The notes beneath the pieces were generated by a model. That model was not told where the DNA came from, did not search any database, and saw only the letters and a list, made by a program, of their open reading frames with translations. 64,000 bases of DNA from an uncultured Pseudomonadales bacterium (GTDB lineage: Bacteria > Patescibacteriota > Microgenomatia > UBA1400 > PJMF01): NCBI GenBank assembly GCA_964449995.1, contig CAYVBW010000001.1:1618-65617 (forward strand), in the 5' to 3' direction. Below, one piece after another: positions 13,939 to 64,000 of this stretch (positions are counted from its first letter, which is position 1; each line of letters starts with the position of its first letter). A program made the position numbers and the translations under genes.

Positions 13939-13980
13939 CTATCTATATAATAAAAGAATACTATTGTTATTAAAAAACGT

Positions 13981-20875: not shown

Positions 20876-23209
20876 TTACAACCTGGCCCTAAGTTGCATC
20901 TCTGCCTCTACTACCTCTCTGTCTTTACCATATTTTAACCTTGATAATTCTCTGATCATCTCAGCCATCTTTGGATTCATTAAAGCTTCAATTTTATCCA
21001 TATCTTTTTCTAATGAAACGCTAAAGGGTGTCATGGGCTCGTTGTCAACAATGGTCTTCATGTAAATATGATATTTTTCAACATTGGTGAGATCGGTTTC
21101 ACTAAAGATTGGAGCAAACTCGTGCTGTAGGAAGTTGGCATCTGTAACGCCAATTCTAAAAGAAACGATAGTGCCTACGTTCCCAAAAACAGCATTTTTA
21201 ACATCTTCGTCAATCTGTCCAATATACTGGTTGGCTACGATTAGATTAAGTTTATATTTTCTGGCCTCTGACAAAATAACTGCAAAATCTTCTGTAGCGT
21301 AATTTTGAAACTCGTCAACATATAAAAAGAAGTCGTCGCGCTTTTCCATTGGCACATCAGCCCTACTCATGGCAGCTGTGAGAATTTTGGGTACTAAAAT
21401 TAAGCCTAAAAATTTTGCATCTTCTTCTCCTAAAACACCTTTAGATAAATTACATAAGATAATCTTTTTTTCATCCATAGCCTTTCTAAAATCAAACGCA
21501 CTTTGAGTCTGCCCAATAATGTTTCTCATAGTTTTGTTGGTTACAAATCTGCCAAATTTTGACACAATGTAATCCAAAACCTCTGATTTATGAAAATCGC
21601 TGGTTTGGGCAATTTGATCAGTCCAATAACGCCTCACTATCGGATCTTTAATAAAGGGCAAGGTTTCTTTTACAAAATTTTCATCAGTTAAAATCCTAAC
21701 CACCTCAATAAAAGTAGAGTTTTCTCGACTCATAACAGAAAGCATGGCGTTTCGTATAGCATGTTCAAATCTTGGACCAATAATGCCAGTTCTATGTGGA
21801 TCATAAAGTTTGTACATCAAATTAATGATCGAACTCACCATAAAATGCTGTTGTTCTTCGCTGTAAGCCTCCATAATGTTTAAGCCCATCGGTCTTTCTC
21901 TGTCTGAAGGATTAAAATAAATCACATCTTCAGCTCTTTCAGGAGGCATTAACTCCAAAACATCCTCAACAAAATCTCCATGCGGATCAATGGCAGCTAC
22001 TCCTTTTCCCTCCTCGATATCCTGCAAAATCATTTGCTTGAGAAATTCTGATTTACCTGTCCCTGTTTTACCAACAATATACATATGACGCCGACGGTCG
22101 TTCAGTTTCATATGGACCTTTCTCTTTTCACCTCGATAGTGAGACTCTCCAATATATAAACCTTCACTAGGAATTTCATGAGGGGCAGGAGCATTTTTGG
22201 CCATCATCCATTTAATATGATGTGTTTCTACTGTTTTGTTGGGAAAATGAAAAATCGTTGCCAGCTCAGCAGTATTTAAAATACTGGTGCCTTTGTTAAA
22301 TAAAGGCATATATCGATATATGAAATCAATCATAAACAAATGCTTAAAAAAAATTTTAGCCTTTTTAAAAGAATTATAGGGAGAGGCAAACTGAGCAAAC
22401 GCACCCGTGATGTTACTTAAATGAGTATCCGTAGCCTGTTCTGTTGGTGCTGAAACTACCATTCTAATTGAAGTTCTAAAACCAGGTCTTGAGATTTCAT
22501 CACTGATTGCTTCCATTTCTTTGGGATCGTGTTTGTAGGTCGTCTCATCAGGATCTGCCTCCTGCTTTTTTTCCTTACTCATATAAGAACGTCCCTTTTT
22601 CTGCCATTTTTTAGAAGTGGGTTGAATTAAAATTTGTAAAACACCACCCTCTCCAGTGTGCATTTTAGATAAGGCTGAGGTTATTAAAGACAAGCCGTCT
22701 GTGGGCAAATCTTTATAAATTTGGATGGGATAATAGTCTGGACTGGCTGTTTTCATGGCAGCAAAAGCCACCTTTCCATCTTCGCTAAAGATGTTAACCT
22801 CATCTACTTCTTCAATCTTGGCTGAAGGATAAGCGCCATTAATCTGTTTTTCCACTACATCTTGAATTTTTTTAGAACAACTTACATAAAAGCCAATCTC
22901 TTCTTTTAAAGCAGCAATTTCAAATGCAATAATTGGCTGGCGTTTAGTAAAAGAAAACATGCCACCTTTGTGCAATGAGTACAAACCAGCAAACATTTGC
23001 TCTGCAGCATCAATTTTAATCTCATTGTCTTTAGGTAACCTCACCAGCAGAGTCACAAAGCTTAAGGCATAATCCTCTCTTTTGAAATGCTTAAACCACT
23101 GAAAAACCATATAGATAAAAACAACCAAAATACCAATAACAACTATGACAGCAAATATACCCGCAATCACTGACGCCAACTGGCCGAATATTTGATCAAA
23201 ATTATCCAT
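20876..23209 (-). CDS. VirD4/TraG-like type IV coupling protein-family ATPase (FtsK/HerA superfamily) with N-terminal TM anchor
   Basis: N-terminal TM (IAGIFAVIVVIGILVVFIYMVF), Walker A MYIVGKTGTGKSEF, Walker B FLYVDEFQNY, C-terminal TraG-D_C-like region; 777 aa. Confidence 0.6.
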   Translation of the reverse strand: MDNFDQIFGQLASVIAGIFAVIVVIGILVVFIYMVFQWFKHFKREDYALSFVTLLVRLPKDNEIKIDAAEQMFAGLYSLHKGGMFSFTKRQPIIAFEIAALKEEIGFYVSCSKKIQDVVEKQINGAYPSAKIEEVDEVNIFSEDGKVAFAAMKTASPDYYPIQIYKDLPTDGLSLITSALSKMHTGEGGVLQILIQPTSKKWQKKGRSYMSKEKKQEADPDETTYKHDPKEMEAISDEISRPGFRTSIRMVVSAPTEQATDTHLSNITGAFAQFASPYNSFKKAKIFFKHLFMIDFIYRYMPLFNKGTSILNTAELATIFHFPNKTVETHHIKWMMAKNAPAPHEIPSEGLYIGESHYRGEKRKVHMKLNDRRRHMYIVGKTGTGKSEFLKQMILQDIEEGKGVAAIDPHGDFVEDVLELMPPERAEDVIYFNPSDRERPMGLNIMEAYSEEQQHFMVSSIINLMYKLYDPHRTGIIGPRFEHAIRNAMLSVMSRENSTFIEVVRILTDENFVKETLPFIKDPIVRRYWTDQIAQTSDFHKSEVLDYIVSKFGRFVTNKTMRNIIGQTQSAFDFRKAMDEKKIILCNLSKGVLGEEDAKFLGLILVPKILTAAMSRADVPMEKRDDFFLYVDEFQNYATEDFAVILSEARKYKLNLIVANQYIGQIDEDVKNAVFGNVGTIVSFRIGVTDANFLQHEFAPIFSETDLTNVEKYHIYMKTIVDNEPMTPFSVSLEKDMDKIEALMNPKMAEMIRELSRLKYGKDREVVEAEMQLRARL

Positions 23210-36310: not shown

Positions 36311-36697
36311 ATGTTATTATTATCAATAATTATGAGACCTTTTCTTCATTCTATTGTTAATAACCAGCTTATTTCACAGCAAAACCAAAATGAAGCAACG
36401 CCCATTAAACTCACTGATTACCTCACTCTCAGGGGAGGAGAATCAATTGCGGATGTATACGATCAACCGGCAAAAATTGTTAATTTAATTGTTAGCAATT
36501 TGTTTGTTGTAGCTGGAATTATTATCTTTTTTTTAATTATTGGAGCTGGATTTAGTTTTATTAAAGGCTCAAGCCAAGGTAAAGAAGAGGCGAAAAATCT
36601 TTTAACTGGAGCTGTTATCGGTTTTTTAATTATGTTTTCTGCCTACTGGATCATTCAAATTATTAAATTTGTGACTGGTGCAGATATACCAATTTAA
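36311..36697 (+). CDS. pilin-like two-TM protein, paralog 1 (divergent, lacks full loop motif)
   Basis: TM1-loop-TM2 architecture: ...AGIIIFFLIIGAGFSFIKGSSQGKEEAKNLLTGAVIGFLIM...; first of 7 co-oriented paralogs. Confidence 0.5.
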   Translation: MLLLSIIMRPFLHSIVNNQLISQQNQNEATPIKLTDYLTLRGGESIADVYDQPAKIVNLIVSNLFVVAGIIIFFLIIGAGFSFIKGSSQGKEEAKNLLTGAVIGFLIMFSAYWIIQIIKFVTGADIPI

Positions 36698-36748
36698 GTA
36701 AAATTAAATAATCCTGCCATGATAAATGAAGTTGGCAAATAATTTATA

Positions 36749-37333
36749 ATGAAAAAAATACCTCTTTTTTTTAAAAAAATCACACAAAACTATTCAAAGC
36801 TTTTCCTAATAGTTTTTGCACTACTATTATTTTTTTCCTCTAAGTTGTTGGTAAATGACACATTTGCTTCTGGTAATAATTGTCACTGTGTATGTGATGC
36901 GAGAGGGCGTGATTGTTCTTGGATGGGCCCAGATTGCGGATACTACCAAGGTCGTCTTTGTGAGGCGGGTGATGTGTTTGGAGAGAGTATTTTTGGCACA
37001 ATTCAGCCCCCTGCAGGAGTAAGAGAAATTCAAGAAGAAGTGGGGGCTGGAAACATTGGCATTATTTTATTTGCATCAAACCTAGTAAGACTAGTAACTG
37101 TGGCTGCAGGCATTTGGGTTATGTTTAATTTTATCTCAGCCGGGTGGATTTATATCACATCAGGCGGAGATGCCTCAGCTCACGAAAAAGTATCTGAGAA
37201 AATAACCCAGAGTCTTATAGGCTTAGCCATAGTGGCACTAGCTTATACTATTGCCGGACTTATCGGTCTTTTGATTTTTGGAGATGCCAGCTTTATTCTT
37301 AGGCCCACCTTAACCGGGGTTGGCCAATTTTAA
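36749..37333 (+). CDS. pilin-like two-TM protein, paralog 2 (signal peptide + Cys-rich N-terminal ectodomain)
   Basis: Signal peptide; CHCVCDARGRDCSWMGPDCGYYQGRLCE; core WIYITSGGDASAHEKVSEKITQSLIGLAIVALAY. Confidence 0.55.
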   Translation: MKKIPLFFKKITQNYSKLFLIVFALLLFFSSKLLVNDTFASGNNCHCVCDARGRDCSWMGPDCGYYQGRLCEAGDVFGESIFGTIQPPAGVREIQEEVGAGNIGIILFASNLVRLVTVAAGIWVMFNFISAGWIYITSGGDASAHEKVSEKITQSLIGLAIVALAYTIAGLIGLLIFGDASFILRPTLTGVGQF

Positions 37334-37344
37334 ATTAACAACTT

Positions 37345-37743
37345 ATGAATATATTTTTAAAAATTCTTAATTATTCAGTGTCATTTTCTAGTCAATTTGG
37401 TAATGGATTTCAGCCACCCACAGATGTCTATACCCAAGGCGCTGACGACAGTGGGGAGGTGGTAAATATCTTGACTAATTTTCTTTCTAATTTAATTGGT
37501 CTTCTAACAATCTTTGGGGCTCTGTTTTTCATTGTTAACTTTTTCTTAGGAGCCCTTGCTTGGATTTCAGCTGGTGATGACTCGGGTAAAGTGGAAAAAG
37601 CGAGAACAAAAATAATGCATGGAGTGTTGGGGCTGATTATAATCGTCCTTGCTTATTCAATTATCGGACTTATTGGACAAATTATTGGCATTGACTTAAT
37701 TAATTTAGGAGAAACAATAGAGCAGGTTGTACCAACTTTATAA
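37345..37743 (+). CDS. pilin-like two-TM protein, paralog 3
   Basis: Core LAWISAGDDSGKVEKARTKIMHGVLGLIIIVLAY. Confidence 0.55.
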   Translation: MNIFLKILNYSVSFSSQFGNGFQPPTDVYTQGADDSGEVVNILTNFLSNLIGLLTIFGALFFIVNFFLGALAWISAGDDSGKVEKARTKIMHGVLGLIIIVLAYSIIGLIGQIIGIDLINLGETIEQVVPTL

Positions 37744-37781
37744 AAATGTAAAATTTAAATAATGCTTAATAATATACAAAT

Positions 37782-38216
37782 ATGACACAACACTTTTCTA
37801 TTTTAAATAAATTAATTACCAAACCAATCCAAGCAAGCAATGGCAGGCTTTTTAATCCCGTTATTGGAAGGTTAGGAGATGACCCTGACGCAGCCAGCAC
37901 AGGTAATTTGTTTTTAACTTATGCTATTCATCTGTGGAGAATAGCAATTAATATCGGAGCCTTAATAGTTTTGGCTTTTTACATAGTTGCCGCCTATGAG
38001 TGGCTAACCAGCGGCAGCGACACTCAAGGAGTTGAAAAAGCGCGCAAAAGATTTGTGAACGCCACCATTGGTTTGATTTTATTGGTGGGGTCTTTTGCCA
38101 TCATAGCCTTTATCAGCAATTTATTGTTTGGTGAAGACTTTAATTTACTACACTTAACCTTCCCAGTTGGCCAAAGCACAGCGCCAACAACACCAATTCA
38201 TAATACTGGGATATAA
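37782..38216 (+). CDS. pilin-like two-TM protein, paralog 4
   Basis: Core YEWLTSGSDTQGVEKARKRFVNATIGLILLVGSF. Confidence 0.55.
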   Translation: MTQHFSILNKLITKPIQASNGRLFNPVIGRLGDDPDAASTGNLFLTYAIHLWRIAINIGALIVLAFYIVAAYEWLTSGSDTQGVEKARKRFVNATIGLILLVGSFAIIAFISNLLFGEDFNLLHLTFPVGQSTAPTTPIHNTGI

Positions 38217-38260
38217 CTAAAAAATCAGCTTAATTTTTTCAAAAAAAAGAAAAAAATAAC

Positions 38261-38635
38261 ATGACAAGCAAAACCACAAACTCATTAGCCTCAATTGAGT
38301 TTGATATCGGTCAAGAAGGCAGAGAACAACTCCCTTTTGGTGAAACTGTGGTCACAGAAGGTGGTGGAGCCAGCGCTGTTTCCAGCTTCATCAGCAACTT
38401 ATTAAGAATAAGCATTGTTGTTGCTGCCCTCATTCTTCTCTTTAATTTAATTTTTGCCGGTTTTGAATGGCTTTCTTCTGGAGGAGATAGCAGTAAAATT
38501 GAAAAAGCGCGCACCAGAATGACTCAGTCAATTATTGGCTTTGTAATACTATTTGCCGTAATTGCTATCTTTACTTTCATCCAAGATTTACTTGGGATAA
38601 ACGTTATTACCTTTACCACTGAAGGTGGTGGTTAA
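38261..38635 (+). CDS. pilin-like two-TM protein, paralog 5
   Basis: Core FEWLSSGGDSSKIEKARTRMTQSIIGFVILFAVI. Confidence 0.55.
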   Translation: MTSKTTNSLASIEFDIGQEGREQLPFGETVVTEGGGASAVSSFISNLLRISIVVAALILLFNLIFAGFEWLSSGGDSSKIEKARTRMTQSIIGFVILFAVIAIFTFIQDLLGINVITFTTEGGG

Positions 38636-38807
38636 CCCATTCCGCCTCCAGAGGGTGGGGGTGGAGGAGAAGTAAGACCTCCAGTATATAAATTTTAAAT
38701 AAATTTAAAATAGAAATTAAAAGCCCTATTTTGACATTTATTTTAAAAACCTGATACAATATCAACAACAATTATCAATAATCATCAAATTAATTAAAGG
38801 AGAAAAA

Positions 38808-39209
38808 ATGAATAAAATTAAACAAATTGCTATAGGAGCCGGATCAGCCATTAGCGGAGCGTTGCTGACCGTCAATCCAGTTTTGGCTCAAGAAACCGAA
38901 GTTAAGGTTGAAGTACCCGATGCCTTTGATATAAGTGTGGGCGATCTTTTAACAACTCTTTTGAATTTAGTTTTAGTCATAGCTGCAATTTTGGTTTTTG
39001 CCTACTTGATTTGGGGTGGAATTGAGTGGATTACCTCTGGTGGTGATAAGAGCAAAACAGAGTCAGCCAGAAATAAAATCACAGCTGCCATTGTAGGGCT
39101 GGTGGTTTTGGTTGCCTCCTATGCCATCTTGCAATTAGTCTTGCAAATCCTTGGGATTCAAGGTGGGTTTGAGGGTATGCTTAACTTTGCTACCATAGGT
39201 GCAAAATAA
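38808..39209 (+). CDS. pilin-like two-TM protein, paralog 6 (clear Sec signal peptide ...VLAQE)
   Basis: Strong RBS-like AAAGGAGAAAAA upstream; core IEWITSGGDKSKTESARNKITAAIVGLVVLVASY. Confidence 0.6.
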   Translation: MNKIKQIAIGAGSAISGALLTVNPVLAQETEVKVEVPDAFDISVGDLLTTLLNLVLVIAAILVFAYLIWGGIEWITSGGDKSKTESARNKITAAIVGLVVLVASYAILQLVLQILGIQGGFEGMLNFATIGAK

Positions 39210-39233
39210 TGTCCTTTTAAATAAGCACACAAC

Positions 39234-39266
39234 AAAAAAAACCCTCTGTTAAAGAGGGTTTTTTAA
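39234..39266 (+). terminator. rho-independent terminator after pilin paralog 6
   Basis: AAAAAAACCCTCTGTTAAAGAGGGTTTTTT: 7-bp GC-containing stem, 5-nt loop, T-run. Confidence 0.7.
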
Positions 39267-39354
39267 TAAATTACAGCCGACTTTCCCATTTTTGCTTAAA
39301 AAATAATATAATAAGTCATTAATAAATAATTTGATACATCAGCACTCCTAATTT

Positions 39355-39807
39355 ATGAAAAAAATCATTAAATTTATTAAAATCTTTTGTTTTTTTGCTA
39401 TTATTTTTTTTGTCAGCACCAACAAAACCTTTGCCCAAACCAGAGTTTGGGAAAGTATTAATCAACATTGTGTTGTTGATGGCGTTGCCACTATCCAGGG
39501 TGTATCTTGCTTGATTGCTAATGTTTTATCAGTTGCTCTCACAGTCATTGGTCTGGCTGGATTCATCATGCTAATAGTTGGCTCCTTAAAATGGCTCTTG
39601 TCAGGAGGCAGCTCTCAAAATGTAGACAGCGCTAAAAAAACCATGACTTATGCCGTGGTTGGACTGGTAGTAGCGCTTAGCTCATTTATGATAATCAATC
39701 TAATTGCTCAGTTTACTGGAGTCAATGTTATTACTGAGTTCTTTATTCCTGGAAGCGATACCGGTCTTGAGGGAGGTCCACAATGGGAAGATGTGGGTCG
39801 ACTGTAG
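39355..39807 (+). CDS. pilin-like two-TM protein, paralog 7 (signal peptide, two Cys in ectodomain)
   Basis: Signal peptide ...TFAQT; core LKWLLSGGSSQNVDSAKKTMTYAVVGLVVALSSF. Confidence 0.55.
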   Translation: MKKIIKFIKIFCFFAIIFFVSTNKTFAQTRVWESINQHCVVDGVATIQGVSCLIANVLSVALTVIGLAGFIMLIVGSLKWLLSGGSSQNVDSAKKTMTYAVVGLVVALSSFMIINLIAQFTGVNVITEFFIPGSDTGLEGGPQWEDVGRL

Positions 39808-40555: not shown

Positions 40556-40566
40556 AATTTAAAGGC

Positions 40567-43388: not shown

Positions 43389-43413
43389 TGTATTTAACCT
43401 AGCTAAAAACTAA

Positions 43414-44484: not shown

Positions 44485-44544
44485 AATCTTTTAATTTTTA
44501 TTTAATGTATATTTTTTAATAATTTGCTAAAAATTTCCCCAAGC

Positions 44545-54363: not shown

Positions 54364-55109
54364 ATACCTAATTTTAATTTAGCTCTTTTTAAATATAAAG
54401 AAATTCCACCCCATCCAGAAACGAAATATTGCTGAACTATCCCAAAAAGGTTTGCAACCACCCAATAAACTGCAAGCCCTGATGGAAAACGAGAAGCAAT
54501 AAAACCTGTCATAAGTGGCATGATATAAATCATTTGCTGCTGCATGTTTTTTGCCATATCAGCCATTTCCTCTTCTTTTACATTTTCTTGTTGTATTTTT
54601 TTGCTTTTAGCTTTATTTGGTACTATATCTCTCACCTCAGATCCAGGAGATATCATGAGAGACATAAGAAGTTGAGAGACTCCTGCCAAAACCGGAAGGA
54701 CAAAGGTGCTGTCGGGCACTGTTAAATCTAACCATAAAAATTCAGTGCTTATAACCACTCCATCTATAACTCCATTTTCTAAAAAAGAGTTAAGTGAGCG
54801 ATATAATCCTATTAGAATCACAACCATAACAATTTGAGGTAAACAACCCGAAAGAGGGTTGATATTATATTTTTGATAAAGCTCCGCCTGTGCTTTTTTT
54901 AATTCTTTGGGATTATTTTTGAATTTCTTTTTTAACTTATCAATTTCTGGCCTAACCTTTTCCATTTTTTCCCTCGCCTTCAAGCTGGGCAAAGAGAAGG
55001 GGAGTAACAATGCTCTGATTAATAAAGTCATAACAACGATAGATACCCCCAAGTTCCCAAATACAGAATATAGAGATGACAAGAGTATTGTAAAAAAATT
55101 TTCTAGCAT
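54360..55109 (-). CDS. yidC: membrane protein insertase YidC (short form)
   Basis: LLPFSLPSLKAREKMEKVRPEIDKLKKKFKNNPKELKKAQAELYQKYNINPLSGCLPQIV typical YidC/Oxa1 core; 5 TM. Confidence 0.85.
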   Translation of the reverse strand: MLENFFTILLSSLYSVFGNLGVSIVVMTLLIRALLLPFSLPSLKAREKMEKVRPEIDKLKKKFKNNPKELKKAQAELYQKYNINPLSGCLPQIVMVVILIGLYRSLNSFLENGVIDGVVISTEFLWLDLTVPDSTFVLPVLAGVSQLLMSLMISPGSEVRDIVPNKAKSKKIQQENVKEEEMADMAKNMQQQMIYIMPLMTGFIASRFPSGLAVYWVVANLFGIVQQYFVSGWGGISLYLKRAKLKLGI

Positions 55110-55140
55110 TGGTTGCGAGTCTTTAAAAAAACTACACTAG

Positions 55141-55326
55141 TTAATAACACTTTAATATTCTTTTAATCCCTTTTACACCCCCTTTTAAAAACCCGCTCTG
55201 TCTTATTTCTTCCGTAGTATACTGACTACAAGAAGGGGAGTGTTTACAGTAAGTAGTAAAGCCAAATACCGAAACAAACAAGCTGTGTTTAAAAATCCTA
55301 GCTAAATCATAAATTTTTTTGATCAT
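55141..55326 (-). CDS. yidD: membrane protein insertion efficiency factor YidD
   Basis: Cys-rich core TYCKHSPSCSQY equivalent to YidD CxxxPSCSxY. Confidence 0.8.
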   Translation of the reverse strand: MIKKIYDLARIFKHSLFVSVFGFTTYCKHSPSCSQYTTEEIRQSGFLKGGVKGIKRILKCY

Positions 55327-55381
55327 TTTTTATGTTCTTAGTTTTTTTTAATTGTGAAGTGTGTTGTCTAAGTGTTTAAAT

Positions 55382-55717
55382 CTACTTAGTGTTTAAAAGG
55401 CTATCTAGTTGAGTGATAAAGTCAAACTCTTCTTTTTTATCTAATACAAATTCTTTTTTTTTAACCAGCACAAGCAGGTCTGCTGGTCGTCTCGATATAT
55501 TATGTCCTCTAATTAAATTAAAGATATCTCTCCTTATTTTATTTCTATAAACAGCTGACTTAACTGCCTTTGTAGGAACTACAACCGCCGCCTTAAAAAT
55601 TTTTTTGTTTTTTTTGTTGTAGTAAATATCTAGACCATTGGTAAAATTGGTTTTATATTTAAAAATTTCTCGACCTAGCTTTGTTTTTAAATTAAGCCTA
55701 TTTTTTTTAGGCAACAT
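55382..55717 (-). CDS. rnpA: ribonuclease P protein component
   Basis: Basic 111-aa protein (LPKKNRL...RNKIRR) directly downstream of rpmH. Confidence 0.8.
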   Translation of the reverse strand: MLPKKNRLNLKTKLGREIFKYKTNFTNGLDIYYNKKNKKIFKAAVVVPTKAVKSAVYRNKIRRDIFNLIRGHNISRRPADLLVLVKKKEFVLDKKEEFDFITQLDSLLNTK

Positions 55718-55721
55718 TTTA

Positions 55722-55874
55722 TTATTTATATCTTCTATTACTAGCTTTGCTCAATTTTTCCCTTTTTTTAGCTCTTCTTCTTACTAAAATGGAAAATTTT
55801 TTTGCCTGTCTGGTTAAAAACCCGTGTTTTCTTGATCTTTTTTTTGATTTTGGTTGATATGTTCTTTTGGGCAT
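55722..55874 (-). CDS. rpmH: 50S ribosomal protein L34 (50 aa; MPKRTYQPKSKKRSRKHGFLTRQAKKFSILVRRRAKKREKLSKASNRRYK)
   Basis: Hand-translated ORF below ORF-track cutoff; MPKRTYQP...HGF...RR.AKGR signature of L34. Confidence 0.8.
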   Translation of the reverse strand: MPKRTYQPKSKKRSRKHGFLTRQAKKFSILVRRRAKKREKLSKASNRRYK

Positions 55875-56052
55875 CTCTTCCTTGATTCTCTTTTAAATTA
55901 TTAATACTAATTATCTTTTTTATATTTTAAATTTTTAAGAAGTTTTGAATTATAACCAATTTGCTTATTTTGAACCAGGGTTATTTTGTTGTTTTTCAAA
56001 AAAAAACTCAACCACAATTATTGAAACTTTACTAAACAAGTTTAATGTCGCT

Positions 56053-57171
56053 TTAATTATTTACTCTAAAAGGCATGACAATATAAGTAAAATTATCTTT
56101 ATTTTTTATGTTAAAAGAAGCTGGTTTTAACTGCTCATTCATGCAAAACACAACCTCTTTAGGATTGGTGTTATTTAAAAAATCTAATAAATAGCGAATA
56201 TCAAAAGCAATTTCCTTATCCAACTCATCATCCATCTGTGAAAGCGTTAAAATTTCTCCGCTGTATTCTCCGTATGATGGTGAATTGGAAGAGATTAGTA
56301 GTTTATTTTCCCTAAGTTCAAATTTAACAATATTAGACGATTCTCTAGCTAAAATAAAAGCCCTTTGCAGCTCTTCTTTGAGAATTTCTCCGTCAATTTC
56401 GACTTGTGTTTCAAAATTTTCGGGAATTATTTTTTTATAAGGTGGATACTCTCCTTCAATCAATCTAACGAATATTTCATTTTGATCAACCTCTATTTTG
56501 ATCTGCTTTAACTCCTCATCCACCTGTATTTTGATTACGTCCACATCACTCTGATCTACAATTCTACAAACTTCTTCAAAAGATTTTATTGGAATCAATA
56601 GCCTTTTTTTTACTTGAGATTCTAGATGTGGATATTTTAAAACCGATAACCTAAACCCATCCGTTGTAGCAACTTCTAAACCGCTTTTATTAAAATCAAA
56701 CATAATTGTGGTGAGAATTGGCCTGACTTGATCCAAACTAGCCGCATATCCAGTCATTTCCAGCACTTCTTTTAAAACACTTGTTGGAATTTCAATTTTG
56801 GGACCTGAAACTTTTGGAAATTCGGGATATTCCGATGGCTCTTGAGCTGGTATTTTAACCCTACTACTACCAGACTCTAACTCTATTGCCTCTTTTTTTA
56901 TGTTTATAAATACTTCTTCATCGCTAAAAGAGTTAATCAAATCTTTCAACATTAATCCAGGAATTACTAGAGAGGCTTTGTGTTTATTATTTTTGAGTTC
57001 AGACTTTGTTTTTATACCTAAATATAAGTCTGTGGCGGCTAAAGTTAAATTATTTTTGTCAACATTAATTAGAACAGAGCTTAAAATGGGTAGCTGAGGA
57101 TTACTAGGAATAGATTTCTGAACATTTTTGATAGCTTTTTTTAAACTTAAAAGATTAAACTCTATTTTCAT
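56053..57171 (-). CDS. dnaN: DNA polymerase III beta sliding clamp
   Basis: 372 aa, three-domain beta-clamp length, immediately downstream of dnaA. Confidence 0.85.
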   Translation of the reverse strand: MKIEFNLLSLKKAIKNVQKSIPSNPQLPILSSVLINVDKNNLTLAATDLYLGIKTKSELKNNKHKASLVIPGLMLKDLINSFSDEEVFINIKKEAIELESGSSRVKIPAQEPSEYPEFPKVSGPKIEIPTSVLKEVLEMTGYAASLDQVRPILTTIMFDFNKSGLEVATTDGFRLSVLKYPHLESQVKKRLLIPIKSFEEVCRIVDQSDVDVIKIQVDEELKQIKIEVDQNEIFVRLIEGEYPPYKKIIPENFETQVEIDGEILKEELQRAFILARESSNIVKFELRENKLLISSNSPSYGEYSGEILTLSQMDDELDKEIAFDIRYLLDFLNNTNPKEVVFCMNEQLKPASFNIKNKDNFTYIVMPFRVNN

Positions 57172-57514
57172 AATTCATTTATAACTATATGTAATTTATT
57201 TGATGAGTTTGTTTAGTATAGCTTATTTATTTTTTTTATTATTAACAATCTGTTTTTAGTTTATATTTAAATTTAAGTAGTAATAGTAGTAATAGGGTAT
57301 GTGGAAAGGTGTATAAAATCGAATCTTTCTCAAGCAGTTGATTTATTTTGCATGTGATTAATTAGTCTTAAGTTGTTAGTAATGCTGTACATAATTCCTT
57401 AATTAAAGAGAGGATAAGTTTATAAAATTAACATTTAGAAATATTTTTAAAGATTTTATCCATATCTTTTTAACACACTTTTCCACTTTTGTGGAAAAGT
57501 TAGAATTAAGAGTC
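57172..57514. promoter_or_regulatory. candidate oriC segment (dnaA-dnaN intergenic): AT-rich DUE plus DnaA-box-like 9-mers
   Basis: TGTGGAAAG 57300-57308; TTATCCATA 57456-57464; perfect palindrome CTTTTCCAC-TTTT-GTGGAAAAG 57478-57499 (two inverted TTTTCCAC[A/T] boxes); 57181-57300 >85% AT. Confidence 0.6.
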
Positions 57515-59047
57515 TCAACTTGATAACTTTAAGAGTTCTGACTTTATTTGATTGTAATCCTGATATACAAGCTCATCTTCTTCAAGTAATTCCTTAATTT
57601 TTTTTCTAGCGTGCATTACAGAGGTATGATCTCTGTTGGAGAACCACCTACCAATTTCTACGTAAGATAAATTTAAATTTTCTTTTAATAAAAACATTGC
57701 TAAATGTCTGGGGTAGACAACTTCTTTATGTCTCGCTTTCCCTTTTATTTCTGATTGTTTTATTTCAAAATGATCGCAGATTTTTTTAATAACCCTTTGG
57801 GGTTTGAGTCTAATTTTGTTATTTTTATGATTTAGTTTTTCTTTTGAGATAATATTACTAATAAGCTCTTCGCTAATCTCTCTATCTTTGAGCTCCACCT
57901 CAGACCTTATTTTGGAAATCACTCCTTCAATTTTTCTAGCACCATCAACACTTTGAGCAATCATTTCAGCTAACTTTATAGGTAGTGCAAGGTTTGATGC
58001 TCTGGATTTTATTAATACTATCGCTGTTTTAAGTTCTAAGGAGGGCTGTTGAATATCTATCATTAATCCCGCCTCAAATCTGGATTTTAATCTATCCTCC
58101 ATTAAATTTATAGCGCTTGGAGGTCTATCAGAAGTGAGTATGATTTGAGACGAATATTTGGTAAGGGAGTTGAAGGTGTGAAAAAATTCCTCTTGGACAG
58201 CGTTTTTCCCAGCAATAAATTGAACATCGTCAATCAAGAGCACCTGAGCGCTTCTAAATTTTTTTTTGAACTTAATTGCTTTTTTATTACGAATTGCATC
58301 AATAATTTCATTAGTGAATTCCTCGCCCGTACAATAAATTATGTTTTTTTGAGGATTTTGGGTGAGAATAAAATTACCAATAGCATGCATCAGGTGAGTT
58401 TTACCAACACCAACCCCTCCATAGAAAAACAAAGGGTTGTATGCCTCTCCAGGTTTTTTGGCGACAGCAGTGGCTGCTGCATGAGCCATTTCGTTACTAC
58501 CAGATACAGCAAAGGTTTTAAAAGTATAGTCTAGTCTTAGTCCAGCTCTTCTAATTGCGTTAAGAGTTCTATCTTGCTGGGTGGCTTCAATGTTGTGTTC
58601 TGAAAAAAGCTCCTCAACCCGAATGGAACCAACTGAGTCGTTTTGGCTATCGTTGAATGAGTCGTTGTTGGTAAAAAATCCGCTGATTTTTTGCAACCCC
58701 CCATTGGAGCCTTTTTTTTGCTTTTTAAAATCATTTTGTTTTTGTTGAGCGGCTATTTCAGAGGGATCTAAAATTTTAAATTCTAACACTACTTTTTTGT
58801 GAATGGCTCCCTCTATTGCTAGTTTGAGTTGTGTGTAAAGATTCTTTTTTAAATTGGTGGCATGAAAAGCGCTGGGTGTGGAAATTGTACAAATCGCTTT
58901 AGTGGATCCATTAATCTCTATTTTAGTTAAGGGATTAGATAACACCCAGGTGTTAAATGCTGCGGGAGAAAGCTGAAGCTTGAGTTCTTTTTTTGCTTTG
59001 TCCCATATTGACCTAACTTCTTCTGGATTAAGATTTTGGGTATCCAT
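57515..59047 (-). CDS. dnaA: chromosomal replication initiator DnaA
   Basis: Walker A GGVGVGKTHLMHAIG, sensor/box VII, C-terminal DNA-binding domain (HTSVMHA); 510 aa. Confidence 0.95.
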   Translation of the reverse strand: MDTQNLNPEEVRSIWDKAKKELKLQLSPAAFNTWVLSNPLTKIEINGSTKAICTISTPSAFHATNLKKNLYTQLKLAIEGAIHKKVVLEFKILDPSEIAAQQKQNDFKKQKKGSNGGLQKISGFFTNNDSFNDSQNDSVGSIRVEELFSEHNIEATQQDRTLNAIRRAGLRLDYTFKTFAVSGSNEMAHAAATAVAKKPGEAYNPLFFYGGVGVGKTHLMHAIGNFILTQNPQKNIIYCTGEEFTNEIIDAIRNKKAIKFKKKFRSAQVLLIDDVQFIAGKNAVQEEFFHTFNSLTKYSSQIILTSDRPPSAINLMEDRLKSRFEAGLMIDIQQPSLELKTAIVLIKSRASNLALPIKLAEMIAQSVDGARKIEGVISKIRSEVELKDREISEELISNIISKEKLNHKNNKIRLKPQRVIKKICDHFEIKQSEIKGKARHKEVVYPRHLAMFLLKENLNLSYVEIGRWFSNRDHTSVMHARKKIKELLEEDELVYQDYNQIKSELLKLSS

Positions 59048-59278
59048 ATGTTGCTGACTTTATAAAAAATACATAGTTAGATTGGAGTTTTAAAAACGTC
59101 CAATGACTGTTCTGCTCAAAATTGGCAGGATTTAAGGTTATGTGGGCAGGAAGTTGACTAGCTAAATTAAGATTTAACTAACCCGATTTGTGGGTTAACA
59201 ACATTCATATTTATATACATAGTTTTCCACAATGAAAAGAGGCAGTTTTTTAATAGTCTGGCCAGCTTTTTGAGTCAA
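59048..59278. promoter_or_regulatory. dnaA upstream region with additional DnaA-box-like sites (second oriC segment / dnaA autoregulation)
   Basis: TTTTCCACA 59223-59231 (8/9 to TTATCCACA); TGTGGGTTA 59189-59197. Confidence 0.45.
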
Positions 59279-61375
59279 CTAATTGTTGGGAGCCTGGTAG
59301 TCTTCAATTGAGTGCTGACCCTGTCTTTTGGTTTGTGCTGGTTGGGCTTGTGGTGTTTGTCGGACTGGTGGCTCTTGTGGACCTTGAGAGTCTGCGTTGT
59401 GCACCTGCTTATCTTTATATTGTTGTAGGTATTGTTTTAAAACTGGAGAGCTGGCTTGACTAGTATCATCTTCGTCGGAGGTTGTCTCTCTCTCTGCTTT
59501 TCTAGCAAACAACTCTCTGGGGTCGGTGGTGATTACCTGGTGTTCTTCGGGACTAGCTACCACCCTCAGAGCCACGTGGTTTTGTCCAGCAAAAAAGATT
59601 CCTTCGCCAATGTCGGCTGACACAAGTAGTTGGCGCTCACCCTGAGAGAGATAAAATGTGTCTGCCAGCACAGGAATTGAGGCAGATGATTGTCTCATGA
59701 GTAATTTAATTGAGGCATTGGAAACAATGGCCTTACCATATTGGTTGTGAAGAAAATCTTCAACATCTTGAGTTATTGTGGTGATGGCTAAATAGTATTT
59801 GCGAGCCCTCTTTGCCATGGAGTATACAAAACGAGCACTGTCGGGGTGTTGCATAAAATACCAGGCCTCGTCAATTACCAACAACCTTTTTTTAAAATCT
59901 TTTTTAATTTTTGTCCAAATAAAATCCAAAATAATATACATCGCAATCGGCCTAAGTTCATCCTCCATTTCTTTGACACTAAAAACAGTGAGGGGATTGT
60001 GGATGTCAACATTTGTTGGTTGATCCAAAATTCCTCTAAAAGAACCGGTAATAAATTTTTCTAGTCTGGCAGACAAGTTGTCTGCGTCAGCATTTTCCAT
60101 ACCGACTAAAGCCTTATACAAATCCTCCATTAGCGGAGGAACGTTGTTTTGCGTTGCAGGATCGGGGGTTATTCCCTTTGCTTTGTAGGTTGCAATAAGG
60201 GCTCTATCAAGTATCGCCTCTTGTTCTGCAGTCATTTCACCCAACATAACCTTTAGTAGACCATGTAGTGATAGAACCTTTTGACCCAACTCGTTGGATC
60301 CCTCTTCATAAATTTGTGACAAGTCAAAGGGATTAATTTTGGAGTTTCCATCAAAGGTAAAGTTAATGTATTCTCCACCCACCATTTGACACAATTCTTC
60401 GTATTCGTGTTCTGGGTCTAGCACAATAACTTCAGTGTCGAACATGAGTTGCCTTAGTATCTCCACCTTAACAGCATAGGACTTGCCAGCTCCAGATTTG
60501 GCCAAAATTAACATGTTGTAGCTCTCCATTTGAAACCTGTCAAAGATAACTAACGACTCGTTGTGTTCGTTAATTCCATAAAGAATTCCTTCATCCATCG
60601 TTAACTCCGATGAGGTGAAGGGAAAGGTAGTTGCCAGAGAGGTGGTATCCATGTTTCTCGTTATTTGAAGACGATCAACGCCCATAGGGAGTGTGGTTTT
60701 AAAGCCGTCGTCCATTTGTAGGGTTGCTTTTTTGGAAACTATTAACAAGGCTCCTAGGGTTGATTGGACGCTTTTGGTAATGCGATCCAGCTCTTTAACA
60801 GAGTTGGCGTTAATAGTAATATATAAACCAAATTGATAGAATCTCTCGGCTCCGGCTGCAAGTTGTTCGCGAATAGCTCTGGCATCGTTGAGCTTGATTT
60901 CGGTGCTGATGTTGCTTATTTTTCCAGCACGAATGTCCGACTGAACCTCTGCCTCCATTTCAGTAATTTTACGTTTTAGGCTATCTAAGATTTCACTGCT
61001 ATCCATGGGAAAAATAAACATAGATGTGTTGATTTGATGGGGGAAATTAATCAGGGGAGACAGCCAGTTTGCTGGAACCGATCGTGGATAGCCCGCTACA
61101 AAAAGAGTTCGAGAGTAGGATGAGTTAATTTTTTGAAAGGTAAAGTCAACCTCAATTGCTTCAGGGGCAATGATATCTTCAACCGTAACCAGCCCTCGCG
61201 AGAATTCTTTAATTTTTTCCAACTCATCTTGTCTTTGATCTTCTTCTGGTTTTGGCTTGTCTTTTTTTAAGAATGGTAAAGATAAATTTAGGTTCATGTT
61301 TTTGTATAGAAACTCATTATTTGATTTCAGGAATTGGCGGGGGTGGCTCTCCTCCTTCTTCGCCAATTTGAGCAT
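59279..61375 (-). CDS. VirB4/TrbE/PrgJ-family type IV secretion ATPase
   Basis: Walker A LILAKSGAGKSYAV and the family-diagnostic Walker B LLVIDEAWYF (DEAW); ~700 aa; annotated start overlaps upstream gene, true start may be MNLNLSLPF. Confidence 0.75.
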   Translation of the reverse strand: MLKLAKKEESHPRQFLKSNNEFLYKNMNLNLSLPFLKKDKPKPEEDQRQDELEKIKEFSRGLVTVEDIIAPEAIEVDFTFQKINSSYSRTLFVAGYPRSVPANWLSPLINFPHQINTSMFIFPMDSSEILDSLKRKITEMEAEVQSDIRAGKISNISTEIKLNDARAIREQLAAGAERFYQFGLYITINANSVKELDRITKSVQSTLGALLIVSKKATLQMDDGFKTTLPMGVDRLQITRNMDTTSLATTFPFTSSELTMDEGILYGINEHNESLVIFDRFQMESYNMLILAKSGAGKSYAVKVEILRQLMFDTEVIVLDPEHEYEELCQMVGGEYINFTFDGNSKINPFDLSQIYEEGSNELGQKVLSLHGLLKVMLGEMTAEQEAILDRALIATYKAKGITPDPATQNNVPPLMEDLYKALVGMENADADNLSARLEKFITGSFRGILDQPTNVDIHNPLTVFSVKEMEDELRPIAMYIILDFIWTKIKKDFKKRLLVIDEAWYFMQHPDSARFVYSMAKRARKYYLAITTITQDVEDFLHNQYGKAIVSNASIKLLMRQSSASIPVLADTFYLSQGERQLLVSADIGEGIFFAGQNHVALRVVASPEEHQVITTDPRELFARKAERETTSDEDDTSQASSPVLKQYLQQYKDKQVHNADSQGPQEPPVRQTPQAQPAQTKRQGQHSIEDYQAPNN

Positions 61376-62651
61376 TACCCTCTTCGTTTATATTGATATT
61401 GGGTTGCGTCGTTGTTGTTTTGGATTGGTCTTTGGCGCCAAAAACATTTATTTCTTTTAGTGCGCCGTTAACCACTTTTTGTACATCTGGGTCGGGATTT
61501 TTTGTTTCTTGATTTAGGTTGCTGGTTTTTGCTTTCGTGCTTGGACTTGTTGTGGAGTTGGTGTCTCTCTCGTTTGCTGAATTATTTTTCAACTCAGCAT
61601 TTTCTTGGGTGGGAGGAGCAAACTCAAAACCATCGATGTTTTCCTGGATGTTGGGTTGTTGTACTTCTTGCTGTTGAACTTGTGGGACCTGCTGTTGGGT
61701 TTGTATTACTTGCTCAACAGAGGGTGGCTGCATTTCAGAGAGTGGTTCCTTTGGTTGGGTTTGGATGGGTGGTGGCTCTACTTGGGTGGTTTGGCTAGTT
61801 CCAACTGCCTGTTGGGGCTGGGTTTCAGCATTAAGTACCACCCGCCCTTCTGAGCTTTGTGTTAAAAGCTCAGGTTTGTTTGTTTGAATCTCAACAGGAT
61901 TTGTTTGAGCTTGAGCTTGAGTCTGAGCTTGAGTTTGAGCCTGAACTCCTGTGCCAGACTCATCTTGCATTAGGCTTGCTTTTACCATCGCGGTTTGATA
62001 TTCGCTGCTGTCTGCCACACCAAAACCCTCGCTGGCCTCTGGATTATAGCTTGTATAAAAAACCTTAATTATTTCTTGGGTGGTGAGTTGTCTGGAATAA
62101 AGACCAATTCGCGCAAATTGTGAGATAAGATGGTCTCTTCTTGGTTCTAAAATTGATTGGGCTTTGTCTACAATTAGTGGTTTTTCATATTTGTTGATAT
62201 CAAAATCACCCCTGCCTGGAATGACACTATCAACACTAAGCAAACCTAGTTCTAGGGGTGTTGCTGGCACTGAAACATAAAAATTTTTATCCAACACGTT
62301 TCTTTCTTGAATTAAGTTGGTTACAAATCCACGATAACGGGCAATTCTTTCTTTTTTTTGAGTTGATTGAGACTCTTCTTCTTTTTGTTTGAGTAGGTTT
62401 AGGTAGTTGGTTACGTCTTTTGTTTGAGATTGAATTACAATTTGAATTGGATAATTTAAAGAGTTGAGGAGGGCTGCGTAGGTGTAAATTATGGCATCTT
62501 GCTCTTCTTCAGCAAGAAGGCCAAAGTTCATAGCCCCTACAGTAAGAATAAAGCAGGTGGTGCCGTCTTTTAAAATAACAAGGTCATTGGTTATGTCGTG
62601 TATCTCAAGAAATTCTTGTGCGGTGGCTTTGGTTTCGGATCGAGCAGACAT
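61317..62651 (-). CDS. T4SS-associated hypothetical protein: ~230-aa folded N-domain + Gln/Thr/Pro-rich disordered C-terminal half
   Basis: Sits between PrgI-like and VirB4-like genes; (QAQT)n encoded by tandem GCTTGA/GTCTGA hexamers at ~61905-61950. Confidence 0.45.
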   Translation of the reverse strand: MSARSETKATAQEFLEIHDITNDLVILKDGTTCFILTVGAMNFGLLAEEEQDAIIYTYAALLNSLNYPIQIVIQSQTKDVTNYLNLLKQKEEESQSTQKKERIARYRGFVTNLIQERNVLDKNFYVSVPATPLELGLLSVDSVIPGRGDFDINKYEKPLIVDKAQSILEPRRDHLISQFARIGLYSRQLTTQEIIKVFYTSYNPEASEGFGVADSSEYQTAMVKASLMQDESGTGVQAQTQAQTQAQAQTNPVEIQTNKPELLTQSSEGRVVLNAETQPQQAVGTSQTTQVEPPPIQTQPKEPLSEMQPPSVEQVIQTQQQVPQVQQQEVQQPNIQENIDGFEFAPPTQENAELKNNSANERDTNSTTSPSTKAKTSNLNQETKNPDPDVQKVVNGALKEINVFGAKDQSKTTTTQPNININEEGNAQIGEEGGEPPPPIPEIK

Positions 62652-62778
62652 ACCAAATAGTATAAATCAATTATTGTTGATTAACAAACCAGACTCTAAA
62701 ACTAAAAAACAATTTATAGCTTTTAACTGTTTTCTAAAATAATTTCGCGATAAACAAGAATTCTTAAGCAAATAAAAA

Positions 62779-63801
62779 TTAAACTTTAGAACTAATTTCT
62801 ATTGGGTCAATAATTTTGCCAGACAACTCTATTTTTTGGGAGTCAAACTCCAGTCCGTCCTTTTTAATATTTAAAAGATATTCACCATTGCTGAGTTGTT
62901 GGGAGATGTTGAACTGTCCCAAGGAGTTGCTTTTAACAGCGGTAATTGTTTGTCCTTGGGCATTTTGCACCTCTATTAAGGCTCCACCAACCAACTCTTT
63001 GTTGGGAGTAACAACCATTCCCACTAGTCGATTAGGGTGGGTGGGTTTGCTGGGAAAAGGAAGGTCTTGGTTTTGGCTAGCTGTTTTGATTGATTCATCT
63101 GGGTTTTGATCAGTTTGGGGATTGTTTTTTTTAGGGCTGGGTTTAAGAGCTTCGGACGTATTGGCGAGTTGAATATTTTGACTAAGAGTTGACTCCTGTT
63201 TTGCAACTGGTGGCGCTGAAAAAACCACTGCATCGGTGGGTGCGGGCTTAATTTTTCTGGCCCTTACTTGTAGGTTGGGCTTGGTGGCTTTTCGAACAGG
63301 GTTTTGTTCAACTTGAACTTGTTGAAAATTTTGTAGTATTTGATTTACGCGTTGATCTTGGGTTAAGTCAAACTCATCTTTGTTGTCCGTGGTTGGTTCT
63401 ACTGATTTTAAAAATTGTTGGATTTTATCTCTTTTAATATGAGAGGTGTCAATTTCTGTAGTGGGGGTGGTGTCTTGTTCTCCGGTTTTGTGCTGAAACG
63501 CATCTGGGACTTTGGGTTTTTTTTGCCAATAAAATTTAGTTGGTTTATATAGGGTTTTGATGAAGGTAATAATCCAGTGGTCTAGGGGTCTTTCTTCAAT
63601 GGGTACAAAAGCAGCTGCAAAACCAAGTGCAAAAAAAGTTATAGATAAGGGCCACTTTATAAAATCCGGCAGATTGGTTTTGTAAAAAACAAAAGCAACA
63701 ATGGTTCCAAGCAATATCATGGCAAACTGCTTAAGGGTCATGTTGCCTATTAGGTGAAACCTATAGCCGGTGATGTCTTGTGGTATCGGGTGTTCTCTCA
63801 T
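62779..63801 (-). CDS. PrgI-family (VirB3-like) two-TM protein with long C-terminal extracellular extension (Ig/carboxypeptidase-regulatory-like beta domain)
   Basis: N-terminus HPIPQDITGYRFHLIGNMTLKQFAMILLG matches PrgI-family IPKDI..Y..K.IGPFT.RQ signature followed by two TM helices; C-terminal GEYLLNIKKDGLEF beta-rich region. Confidence 0.55.
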   Translation of the reverse strand: MREHPIPQDITGYRFHLIGNMTLKQFAMILLGTIVAFVFYKTNLPDFIKWPLSITFFALGFAAAFVPIEERPLDHWIITFIKTLYKPTKFYWQKKPKVPDAFQHKTGEQDTTPTTEIDTSHIKRDKIQQFLKSVEPTTDNKDEFDLTQDQRVNQILQNFQQVQVEQNPVRKATKPNLQVRARKIKPAPTDAVVFSAPPVAKQESTLSQNIQLANTSEALKPSPKKNNPQTDQNPDESIKTASQNQDLPFPSKPTHPNRLVGMVVTPNKELVGGALIEVQNAQGQTITAVKSNSLGQFNISQQLSNGEYLLNIKKDGLEFDSQKIELSGKIIDPIEISSKV

Positions 63802-63857
63802 GCAGGGTTAGTATTTTTTGACAATCTTTAAGGCGATGTTTAATTTATATGGTATTA

Positions 63858-64000
63858 GTTTCTATCTTCTATGGCAATTGCTGGAGTGATTAATACACCC
63901 TCAAACTTTTGGTTGTTTTTATCAATAAAGTTTCCCTCAAACCTATAACAGGGGTAGATGAGATTTAGTGCGGGGTCAATTCTATATTCTAAGTTGGTCG
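63858..64000 (-). CDS. 3' end of a minus-strand gene continuing beyond the window (..YRIDPALNLIYPCYRFEGNFIDKNNQKFEGVLITPAIAIEDRN*)
   Basis: Open frame to window edge, stop at ~63858; upstream of PrgI-like gene so possibly another T4SS component. Confidence 0.35.

Follow-up and report, generated by a model that had tools for sequence, protein, structure and literature searches.

A relaxase-less type IV secretion operon next to dnaA in a Microgenomates-type genome: a probable core, non-conjugative system of the Patescibacteria clade

A 64,000-nucleotide stretch of contig CAYVBW010000001.1, from an uncultured Microgenomates-type Patescibacterium (the whole stretch is referred to below as the window), carries on its minus strand, at 59279-64000, a set of type IV secretion system (T4SS) genes that ends just ahead of dnaA. 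This region is the promoter-distal end of a T4SS operon encoding, in order, an M23 hydrolase, a protein of 333 amino acids (aa) that we term p333, a PrgI/VirB3-like protein, a TrsD/TraC-like protein and VirB4. The reading that we favor, with a probability of roughly 0.88, is that it represents a fixed, non-conjugative core chromosomal T4SS of the Patescibacteria clade, derived from the MPF_FATA class. Relaxase-less chromosomal T4SSs beside dnaA, which most of the ultra-small Patescibacteria (CPR bacteria) possess at the replication origin, have already been described in papers from 2023 to 2025 (PMC12102498, PMC10633639). Our additions are a dnaA promoter with a DnaA box after the virB4 stop codon, a head-on orientation of the operon to replication, a VirB4 that is more conserved than DnaA, a YycH/PepSY-like protein (p333) encoded beside a membrane M23 hydrolase, and a VirB6-like candidate (p549). 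The evidence of our own consists of gene identities, synteny, purifying selection and a lack of relaxase and integrase matches in ~74 kb; the essentiality of such systems is taken from the literature. The features of the region are listed below, and genes past the window edge were taken from contigs encoding proteins identical to those of the window, their source being the longer contig L007.

63855..64000, minus strand: 3′ end (last 48 codons) of the p333 gene; the full gene extends past the window end (L007 8946-9947)
62779..63801, minus strand: PrgI/VirB3-like membrane protein, 340 aa (Pfam PrgI PF12666)
61317..62651, minus strand: TrsD/TraC-like protein, 444 aa (NCBIfam VirB4_plasma and TrsD/TraD; PF26593)
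59279..61375, minus strand: VirB4-type T4SS ATPase without its own N-terminal domain, 698 aa (NCBIfam CD1110)
59211..59245, minus strand: dnaA promoter-like element with embedded DnaA box (consensus across related loci)
57515..59047, minus strand: dnaA (Pfam Bac_DnaA 218 bits, Bac_DnaA_C 87 bits)
57172..57514, strand not applicable: dnaA-dnaN spacer, probable oriC (DnaA-box-like sites and AT-rich stretch)
56053..57171, minus strand: dnaN (three DNA_pol3_beta domains)

The initial annotation of this DNA, made from its letters and open reading frames (ORFs), had described a gene running off the window edge, then a PrgI-family-like protein, a 444-aa protein and a VirB4 ATPase, all on the minus strand, with the module ending about 230 bp from dnaA. 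The ORF coordinates agree with this order and with the truncated edge gene, and the virB4-dnaA spacer measures 231 bp. The 698-aa protein scored 373 bits (cut-off 325) against the NCBIfam model "VirB4-like conjugal transfer ATPase, CD1110 family", covering positions 178-734 of 752, and also matched Pfam P-loop_TraG (98 bits) and AAA_10. The motifs on which the VirB4 assignment had been based are both present, Walker A GAGKS at residue 295 (nt 60479-60493) and Walker B VIDEAW (DEAW) at residue 502 (nt 59861-59872). FtsK/HerA identity had been named as the finding that would speak against that assignment; the HerA score was just 16.8 bits, compared with 373 bits for CD1110, and these scores mark the protein as a true VirB4 rather than an FtsK/HerA ATPase. 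The exact protein is also present in public databases, where it is annotated as a VirB4 component.

The N-terminal, membrane-proximal domain is absent from the VirB4 polypeptide, the CD1110 alignment opening at model position 178. Residues 5-208 of the 444-aa protein aligned with positions 98-281 of the NCBIfam VirB4_plasma model (E = 5e-10), and the protein also matched the TrsD/TraD family (E = 2.7e-7), both with scores far under the family cut-offs (590 and 200 bits, respectively). The two ORFs tile a single VirB4 model consecutively, the 444-aa protein covering positions 98-281 and the 698-aa protein positions 268-893. Public precomputed annotation assigns the 444-aa protein to PF26593 ("TraC-like"), and tblastn with this query matched an ORF that precedes VirB4 as a gene of its own on a Pontibacillus megaplasmid, as well as the "TraC family protein" of Clostridium botulinum pCLJ. 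By these matches, residues 1-215 are a homologue of the VirB4 N-terminal domain, i.e., a TrsD-type split domain, while residues ~216-444 form a variable, probably disordered Q/T/P-rich tail; the Q/T-rich composition had been noticed from the outset, and the identity of the protein is what we add. Across 72 TrsD-like orthologues of 226-705 aa the domain was kept (median identity 62%), and the tails, of 11-490 residues, were P/Q/T/A/S-rich without exception.

That the 444-aa ORF and virB4 overlap by 59 nt, or are joined by a frameshift, was considered and rejected, the overlap being probably an artefact of start-codon choice. Alignments with homologues begin near residue 27 of VirB4, and the ATG of M27 (nt 61297) sits 19 nt past the stop of the 444-aa ORF. 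M27 is probably the true start of VirB4, in which case the apparent 59-nt overlap would vanish.

The 340-aa ORF, whose N-terminus reads MREHPIPQDITGYRFHLIGNMTLKQF, scored above the cut-off for Pfam PrgI PF12666 (29.7 versus 27 bits), in keeping with its original description. The PrgI part comprises the N-terminal ~90 aa, and is joined by a low-complexity linker to a C-terminal, CarboxypepD_reg-like beta-sandwich (31.3 bits, slightly under the cut-off of 32.3) that was retained in 62 of 67 PrgI-like orthologues. The gene is given as 320 rather than 340 aa on some JGI contigs; strain variation was rejected as the explanation, the DNA being identical and the gene callers differing in their choice of start.

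The initial annotation had likened the module to the PrgI-PrgJ arrangement of Gram-positive conjugative systems. The likeness in gene order stands, but a better parallel than PrgI-PrgJ is the series VirB3-like, split VirB4 N-terminal domain (TrsD/TraC-like), VirB4, found as TrsC-TrsD-TrsE in pGO1/pSK41 and, as PrgI family (93 aa), TraC family (257 aa) and VirB4 (620 aa), in C. botulinum pCLJ. These modules differ from that of the window in being plasmid-borne, in the pGO1 type together with relaxases, and are just ~24-30% identical to it; moreover, the short PrgI and TraC proteins of the plasmids are without the beta-sandwich and the long low-complexity tail of their counterparts in the window. 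The best plasmid match to VirB4, with 37% identity, is on the Pontibacillus sp. ALD_SL1 megaplasmid NZ_CP062975, which is typed as non-mobilizable and unites an Mbov_0395 pilin-like gene, a TrsD-like ORF, a CD1110 VirB4 and an M23 DD-metalloendopeptidase of ~1050 aa. It differs in that it comes from Bacillota, has the hydrolase downstream of virB4 and a single annotated pilin-like gene, and does not lie beside dnaA. From these comparisons, the split VirB4 and the three-gene order appear to be inherited from a monoderm MPF_FATA subclass. The long TrsD tail, the PrgI beta-sandwich, the pilin array and the fixed place beside dnaA are lineage-specific.

To compare the locus across related bacteria, one genome per species was scanned, and the 80 best loci by VirB4 similarity were retained. 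The gene order hydrolase, YycH-like, PrgI, TrsD, VirB4, dnaA, dnaN was the recurrent pattern among these species-level genomes. dnaA was co-oriented with virB4 and came after it in 77 of the 80, the remaining three loci ending early. A TrsD-like gene lay upstream of virB4 in 75/80 and a PrgI-like gene in 71/80, and the genes for p333 and for the M23 hydrolase (p1269) were each detected in 43/80, their divergence making tblastn miss many. Median identities to the window proteins were 74% for VirB4, 62% for the TrsD domain, 54% for YidC, 52% for DnaA, 41% for DnaN, 40% for the PrgI-like protein and 26% for p333, and VirB4 identity exceeded DnaA identity in every locus compared (73/73). VirB4 homologues, thousands in number, are 65-84% identical across Patescibacteria, the nearest (70-84%) coming from Microgenomates, Pacebacteria, Woesebacteria and other Patescibacteria metagenome-assembled genomes. 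The best matches among 72,556 plasmids, in the monoderm Bacillota and Actinomycetota, are 29-37% identical. Placement of this VirB4 in the Patescibacteria clade is consistent with the 65-84% identity seen there versus at most 37% for plasmids. Because the order recurs in 77 of 80 genomes and VirB4 is more conserved than DnaA, the module looks like a fixed core system and not an integrated conjugative element (ICE), i.e., a core set of genes passed on vertically under strong purifying selection rather than a mobile element.

Pfam was searched with all ORFs of at least 110 aa and with the upstream genes, and NCBIfam with some of these. No window ORF of at least 110 aa had a Pfam match to a relaxase, integrase, recombinase or transposase, and a further 10 kb beyond the window (~74 kb in total) was likewise free of relaxase or integrase domains. 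No exact att-like direct repeats flank the module, imperfect AT-rich repeats being all that was seen. The ICE hypothesis was rejected on these two grounds, i.e., the lack of relaxase/integrase domains in ~74 kb and of flanking direct repeats. Housekeeping genes are interspersed through the window, including pgk, leuS, pth, uppS, recF, rpsA and those of the mevalonate pathway, and genes for an ABC (ATP-binding cassette)/MacB exporter, an ATP-dependent DNA ligase, an ECF (extracytoplasmic function) sigma factor and rplY are also present. The initial annotation had seen no relaxase or integrase in the window and had proposed a domesticated T4SS rather than an ICE; the domain scan, the missing att-like repeats, the fixed locus and the conservation of VirB4 above that of DnaA all agree with it.

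Its account of the T4SS was accurate for the core module but incomplete, in that two additional parts within the window had gone unmentioned:

36311..39807, plus strand: seven VirB2-like T4SS pilin genes of 128, 194, 132, 144, 124, 133 and 150 aa (Pfam T4SS_pilin)
20876..23209, minus strand: VirD4-like type IV coupling protein (T4CP), 777 aa (Pfam TrwB_AAD_bind)

The pilin array is ~20 kb from virB4. Its members scored 21-35 bits against Pfam T4SS_pilin PF18895, four of the seven above the cut-off of 26.6, and five of six tested gave weak matches to NCBIfam Mbov_0395 (pilin-like, from Mycoplasma ICEs); pairwise identity among them averages 33%, with a maximum of 43%. An ECF-type sigma factor (35530-36066, minus strand) is encoded divergently just upstream of the array. 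The T4CP scored 34.3 bits against TrwB_AAD_bind (cut-off 20.5), with a weak TraG-D_C match and with scores for NCBIfam TraD and CD1115 VirD4-like under their cut-offs. It is unlinked, 36 kb from virB4; its neighbors are small genes without a family match and housekeeping genes, and no relaxase adjoins it.

These features are those of a system that has been described from a survey that covered 3,035 genomes of Patescibacteria (Quinonero-Coronel et al., 2025, Microb Genom 11:001409, PMC12102498), in which a Patescibacteria-specific VirB4 clade was found nested in MPF_FATA. TrsD was the commonest partner of virB4, with PrgI/VirB3 also reported; VirB2-like pilin arrays were present, especially in Microgenomatia and Saccharimonadia; T4CPs were distant from virB4; and relaxases were nearly absent (103/3,035 genomes). 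dnaA, dnaN, rnpA and rpmH were abundant beside virB4, which was read as a gene-dosage effect, and the system was considered to have been co-opted for a non-conjugative role, possibly import of DNA or other macromolecules. The window is an instance of this T4SS as it occurs in Microgenomatia, with no essential difference; common to both are the adjacent TrsD and PrgI genes, the pilin array, the distant T4CP, the lack of a relaxase and the dnaA, dnaN, rnpA and rpmH neighbors. In the same survey VirB6 was scarce in Microgenomatia and VirB3 was poorly linked to virB4 there (22.6%), whereas our query with the window's own PrgI-like protein found it adjacent in 71 of the 80 loci.

In Southlakia epibionticum ML1, transposon sequencing (Tn-seq) showed the T4SS genes SEML1_0006-0019 and the pilins, among them VirB4, TrsD, PrgI, VirB6 and pilins, to be essential for epibiotic growth (Wang et al., 2023, Cell, PMC10633639), a result repeated in a 2025 FEMS review (PMC12857230). 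Like that of the window, the Southlakia T4SS is chromosomal, relaxase-less and Gram-positive-like, has a divergent pilin array, and stands at the start of genome numbering. However, Southlakia belongs to the class Saccharimonadia, its pilins lie within the cluster, and peptidase and lysozyme genes follow downstream of virB4; in the present genome, where the system is known from its genes alone, the pilin array is ~20 kb off and an M23 hydrolase is encoded upstream. Few machines of this very large, mostly uncultivated radiation have been shown to be indispensable for epibiotic life, and the T4SS of Patescibacteria is one of them, the demonstration being that in Southlakia. That importance belongs to the published work, to which the window contributes one more example, from a Microgenomates-type genome.

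Past the window edge, the p333 gene starts 26 nt after the M23 hydrolase gene. The hydrolase, p1269 (L007 5110-8919), is 1269 aa long, has transmembrane segments and carries its M23 peptidase domain at the C-terminus (30.8 bits in Pfam, cut-off 28.7). p333 is bitopic, with a single N-terminal transmembrane helix followed by three tandem YycH/PepSY-like domains, and a library of 1.8 billion proteins contains 326 representative clusters of its family. An AlphaFold model for the family had a predicted local distance difference test (pLDDT) score of 94.6 and a predicted template modelling (pTM) score of 0.88, and its top Foldseek match was YycH (E = 7.9e-7); the modelled fold is YycH/PepSY-like, not VirB8-like. 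Proteins of the VirB8/TcpC/PrgL type have an NTF2-like extracytoplasmic domain after the N-terminal transmembrane helix, and p333 does not. Neither a profile search of PDB sequences nor an hhalign profile comparison with TcpC of pCW3 gave a match, and p333 was rejected as a VirB8/TcpC-like component on the fold of the confident AlphaFold2 (AF2) model. A Pfam scan of 65 family members returned just weak DUF4901 matches, in seven of them, and a word-index homologue search with p333 returned the query alone, the family being too divergent for the index.

YpeB and YycH/YycI govern cell-wall hydrolases (in Bacillus, as YpeB-SleB and YycH/YycI-WalK). Because such proteins control hydrolases and the p333 gene lies 26 nt from the M23 gene, p333 may, by analogy, escort or regulate the M23 hydrolase. 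The Bacillus proteins are without detectable sequence similarity to p333, and it is by gene adjacency only that p333 and the M23 hydrolase are paired.

Further upstream, the locus encodes a divergently transcribed 839-aa protein without a family match, and p549 (L007 691-2340), a polytopic membrane protein of 549 aa with a signal peptide and no Pfam or NCBIfam match. An AF2 model of its 84%-identical orthologue had a pLDDT of 69. The top seven Foldseek matches of this model in the PDB were all R388 VirB6/TrwI, although weak (E 0.016-0.45, template modelling score 0.33-0.41), which makes p549 a VirB6-like candidate, no more. An imperfect 22-nt repeat (AGGTTGTTAATAATCTCAAAAA, copies 77-82% identical) occurs at L007 582-603, 5037-5058 and 16551-16572, with one copy each ahead of dnaN and of the genes for p549 and the M23 hydrolase; it may be a chance feature of AT-rich spacers or a common promoter motif.

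How the apparatus might work can be sketched from its parts. The PrgI/VirB3 and TrsD proteins would dock a hexameric VirB4 ATPase at the membrane, where VirB4 would power extraction and polymerisation of pilins and drive the building of a pilus or translocon in which a VirB6-like channel protein probably takes part. The M23 hydrolase would open the peptidoglycan locally, possibly under the control of its YycH/PepSY-like neighbor. Such an apparatus would be used for exchange on contact with a host cell, not for conjugation of a plasmid or ICE, and the unlinked T4CP may or may not participate. Its substrate and direction, whether protein is exported or host DNA or some other macromolecule is taken in, we can only infer.

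Several points weigh against the reading as a fixed, non-conjugative core T4SS. The VirB6-like assignment of p549 is weak, and the p549 gene lies within 10 kb of virB4 in just 4 of the 80 loci; no VirB8-like component was found, p333 having been tested and failed. Because the loci were picked by VirB4 similarity, VirB4 identity is somewhat inflated relative to that of DnaA. Placement in the Patescibacteria clade rests on identity levels, the tree itself being the published one (PMC12102498). The region inspected spans ~74 kb, so that a relaxase may exist elsewhere in the genome, or may be very divergent, and a T4CP is present. Finally, the function, the substrate, formation of a pilus and the hydrolase-regulator idea are all inferences about an uncultivated organism.

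The alternative that survives best is that the system is a dedicated machine for importing DNA or nucleotides, like ComB of Helicobacter pylori or the archaeal Ced system, which would feed a nucleotide-auxotrophic cell. We consider this possible, though on the unlikely side. Patescibacteria are without nucleotide synthesis, and ComEC-dependent competence is dispensable for growth of Southlakia, so that another route would be needed; VirB4 and the T4CP also gave weak NCBIfam scores for CedB (46.7 bits) and CedD (30.5 bits), respectively. However, these scores are far under the cut-offs of 700 and 600 bits, and the VirB7-10 components of a ComB-type system are missing, no gene resembling VirB7/9/10 having been seen. 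Import would be compatible with a fixed, non-conjugative core T4SS, and does not exclude it.

It is very unlikely that the T4SS is still conjugative, exporting DNA with the help of an unlinked VirD4-like T4CP and an unrecognised or unlinked relaxase, much in the manner of chromosomal transfer in mycoplasmas or mycobacteria. The T4CP homologue at 20876-23209 would suit such a role, VirB4 and the pilins are weakly similar to the Mycoplasma ICE families Mbov_0397 and Mbov_0395, and relaxases can diverge strongly. Yet no ORF of at least 110 aa in the window or among the upstream genes has a relaxase domain, a relaxase of any kind was reported in just the 103 of 3,035 Patescibacteria genomes mentioned above, and in Southlakia the T4CP is not essential, whereas other T4SS genes are (published data). 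Exceedingly improbable is an ICE, or a remnant of one, inserted by chance beside dnaA: although the VirB4, PrgI and TrsD families are typical of Gram-positive conjugative elements and the G+C content of the module (0.39-0.42) exceeds that of the adjacent dnaA-dnaN-rnpA region (0.30-0.32), values of 0.40-0.44 are also seen in housekeeping parts of the window, the locus and its orientation are the same in 77/80 species-level genomes, VirB4 is better conserved than DnaA, ~74 kb contain no relaxase, integrase or transposase match and no direct repeats flanking the module, and the published phylogeny indicates vertical inheritance within classes (PMC12102498).

The remaining results concern the junction between the T4SS operon and the replication origin. 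In the window the cumulative GC skew is lowest at 56-58 kb; the minimum lies within the dnaA-dnaN spacer in L007 and near there in related loci. Four of the six TTTCCACA octamers of the 64-kb window fall within 57300-59231. The dnaA-dnaN spacer is AT-rich and has DnaA-box-like sites at 57300-57307, 57456-57464 and 57490-57497; on this evidence it is the probable oriC, and the proposal that the module lies beside the origin holds. Across 77 loci, the density of T[TA]TCCACA was 3.8 per kb in both the virB4-dnaA and the dnaA-dnaN spacer (median lengths in related loci 121 and 302 bp, respectively) versus 0.16 per kb overall. Canonical TTATCCACA boxes, with one mismatch allowed, were discarded as a marker, showing no clear window-wide enrichment (27 versus 18 expected) and leaving T[TA]TCCACA as the informative variant.

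In the window, the virB4-dnaA spacer contains the DnaA box TGTGGAAA on the coding strand (59224-59231). A single box of constant orientation, TGTGGAAA or occasionally TGTGGATA on the coding strand, was present in this spacer in 54 related loci, at a median of 29 nt past the virB4 stop and 87 nt ahead of the dnaA start. The consensus anchored on the box, CTTGcc..TGTGGAAAACT.TGTGTATAAc, corresponds to a −35 and an extended −10 element, with the DnaA box in the spacer between them. A DnaA box inside the dnaA promoter is the classical layout for autoregulation of dnaA. The promoter-like element starts ~15-30 nt past the virB4 stop in the 54 genomes, and a few tens to ~50 nt past it in the window. 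Because it starts so soon, there is no space for a terminator, and a scan of the window revealed no terminator-like hairpin between virB4 and dnaA. A CTGCCCC motif recurs 40-60 nt downstream of the promoter-like element (loci L011-L090).

In all 44 full-length loci GC skew was negative upstream of dnaA, and in 37 of them it was positive downstream of dnaN, the genes on both sides of the origin sharing one strand. Because the skew switches sign while the genes stay on the same strand, the T4SS operon and dnaA must be transcribed head-on to the leftward fork. In many bacteria the rpmH-rnpA-yidD-yidC-jag block diverges from dnaA. Here, rpmH, rnpA, yidD, yidC and jag follow dnaN without a change of strand (53851-57171, minus strand), and the place 5′ of dnaA is occupied by the T4SS operon, not by the rpmH/rnpA block. 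The orientation, the DnaA boxes and the spacer are not discussed in PMC12102498. A speculative view, which we regard as unlikely, is that the strict virB4-dnaA adjacency couples a host-interaction machine to replication initiation, beyond any effect of gene dosage. Transcription of the ~9-kb T4SS operon would then read into dnaA unless blocked by DnaA bound at the box, and either the level of DnaA would gate read-through from the T4SS genes, or T4SS expression would boost dnaA. If this were true, replication of the chromosome would be linked to the cell's attachment to a host or its feeding on one.

Some other features of the window were recorded in passing. Its start (1-558, minus strand) lies inside an rRNA operon, with the 5′ end of the 23S rRNA (1-315) preceded by tRNA-Ala(TGC). 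A probable large surface adhesin of 1711 aa (1403-6538, plus strand) combines four Laminin_G_3 (concanavalin-like lectin) domains with a glycine-rich domain and DUF2341. At 13865-13939 (plus strand) lies a tRNA-Ile gene whose anticodon is TAT (UAU); most bacteria read AUA with a lysidine-modified CAU tRNA, and a UAU tRNA-Ile is unusual. The ATP-dependent DNA ligase mentioned above (28653-30440, minus strand) is of the archaeal/eukaryotic type and has all three ligase domains. Genes for a thiolase, a 3-hydroxy-3-methylglutaryl-CoA (HMG-CoA) synthase-like protein and HMG-CoA reductase lie in a row at 42282-45852 (minus strand), which suggests a mevalonate pathway, and uppS and an amino-acid-kinase-family gene are found near them (39857-41364). 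Finally, downstream of the dnaA-yidC block and a few genes away from it, a 1024-aa DUF4012 protein is encoded at 50082-53156 (minus strand).

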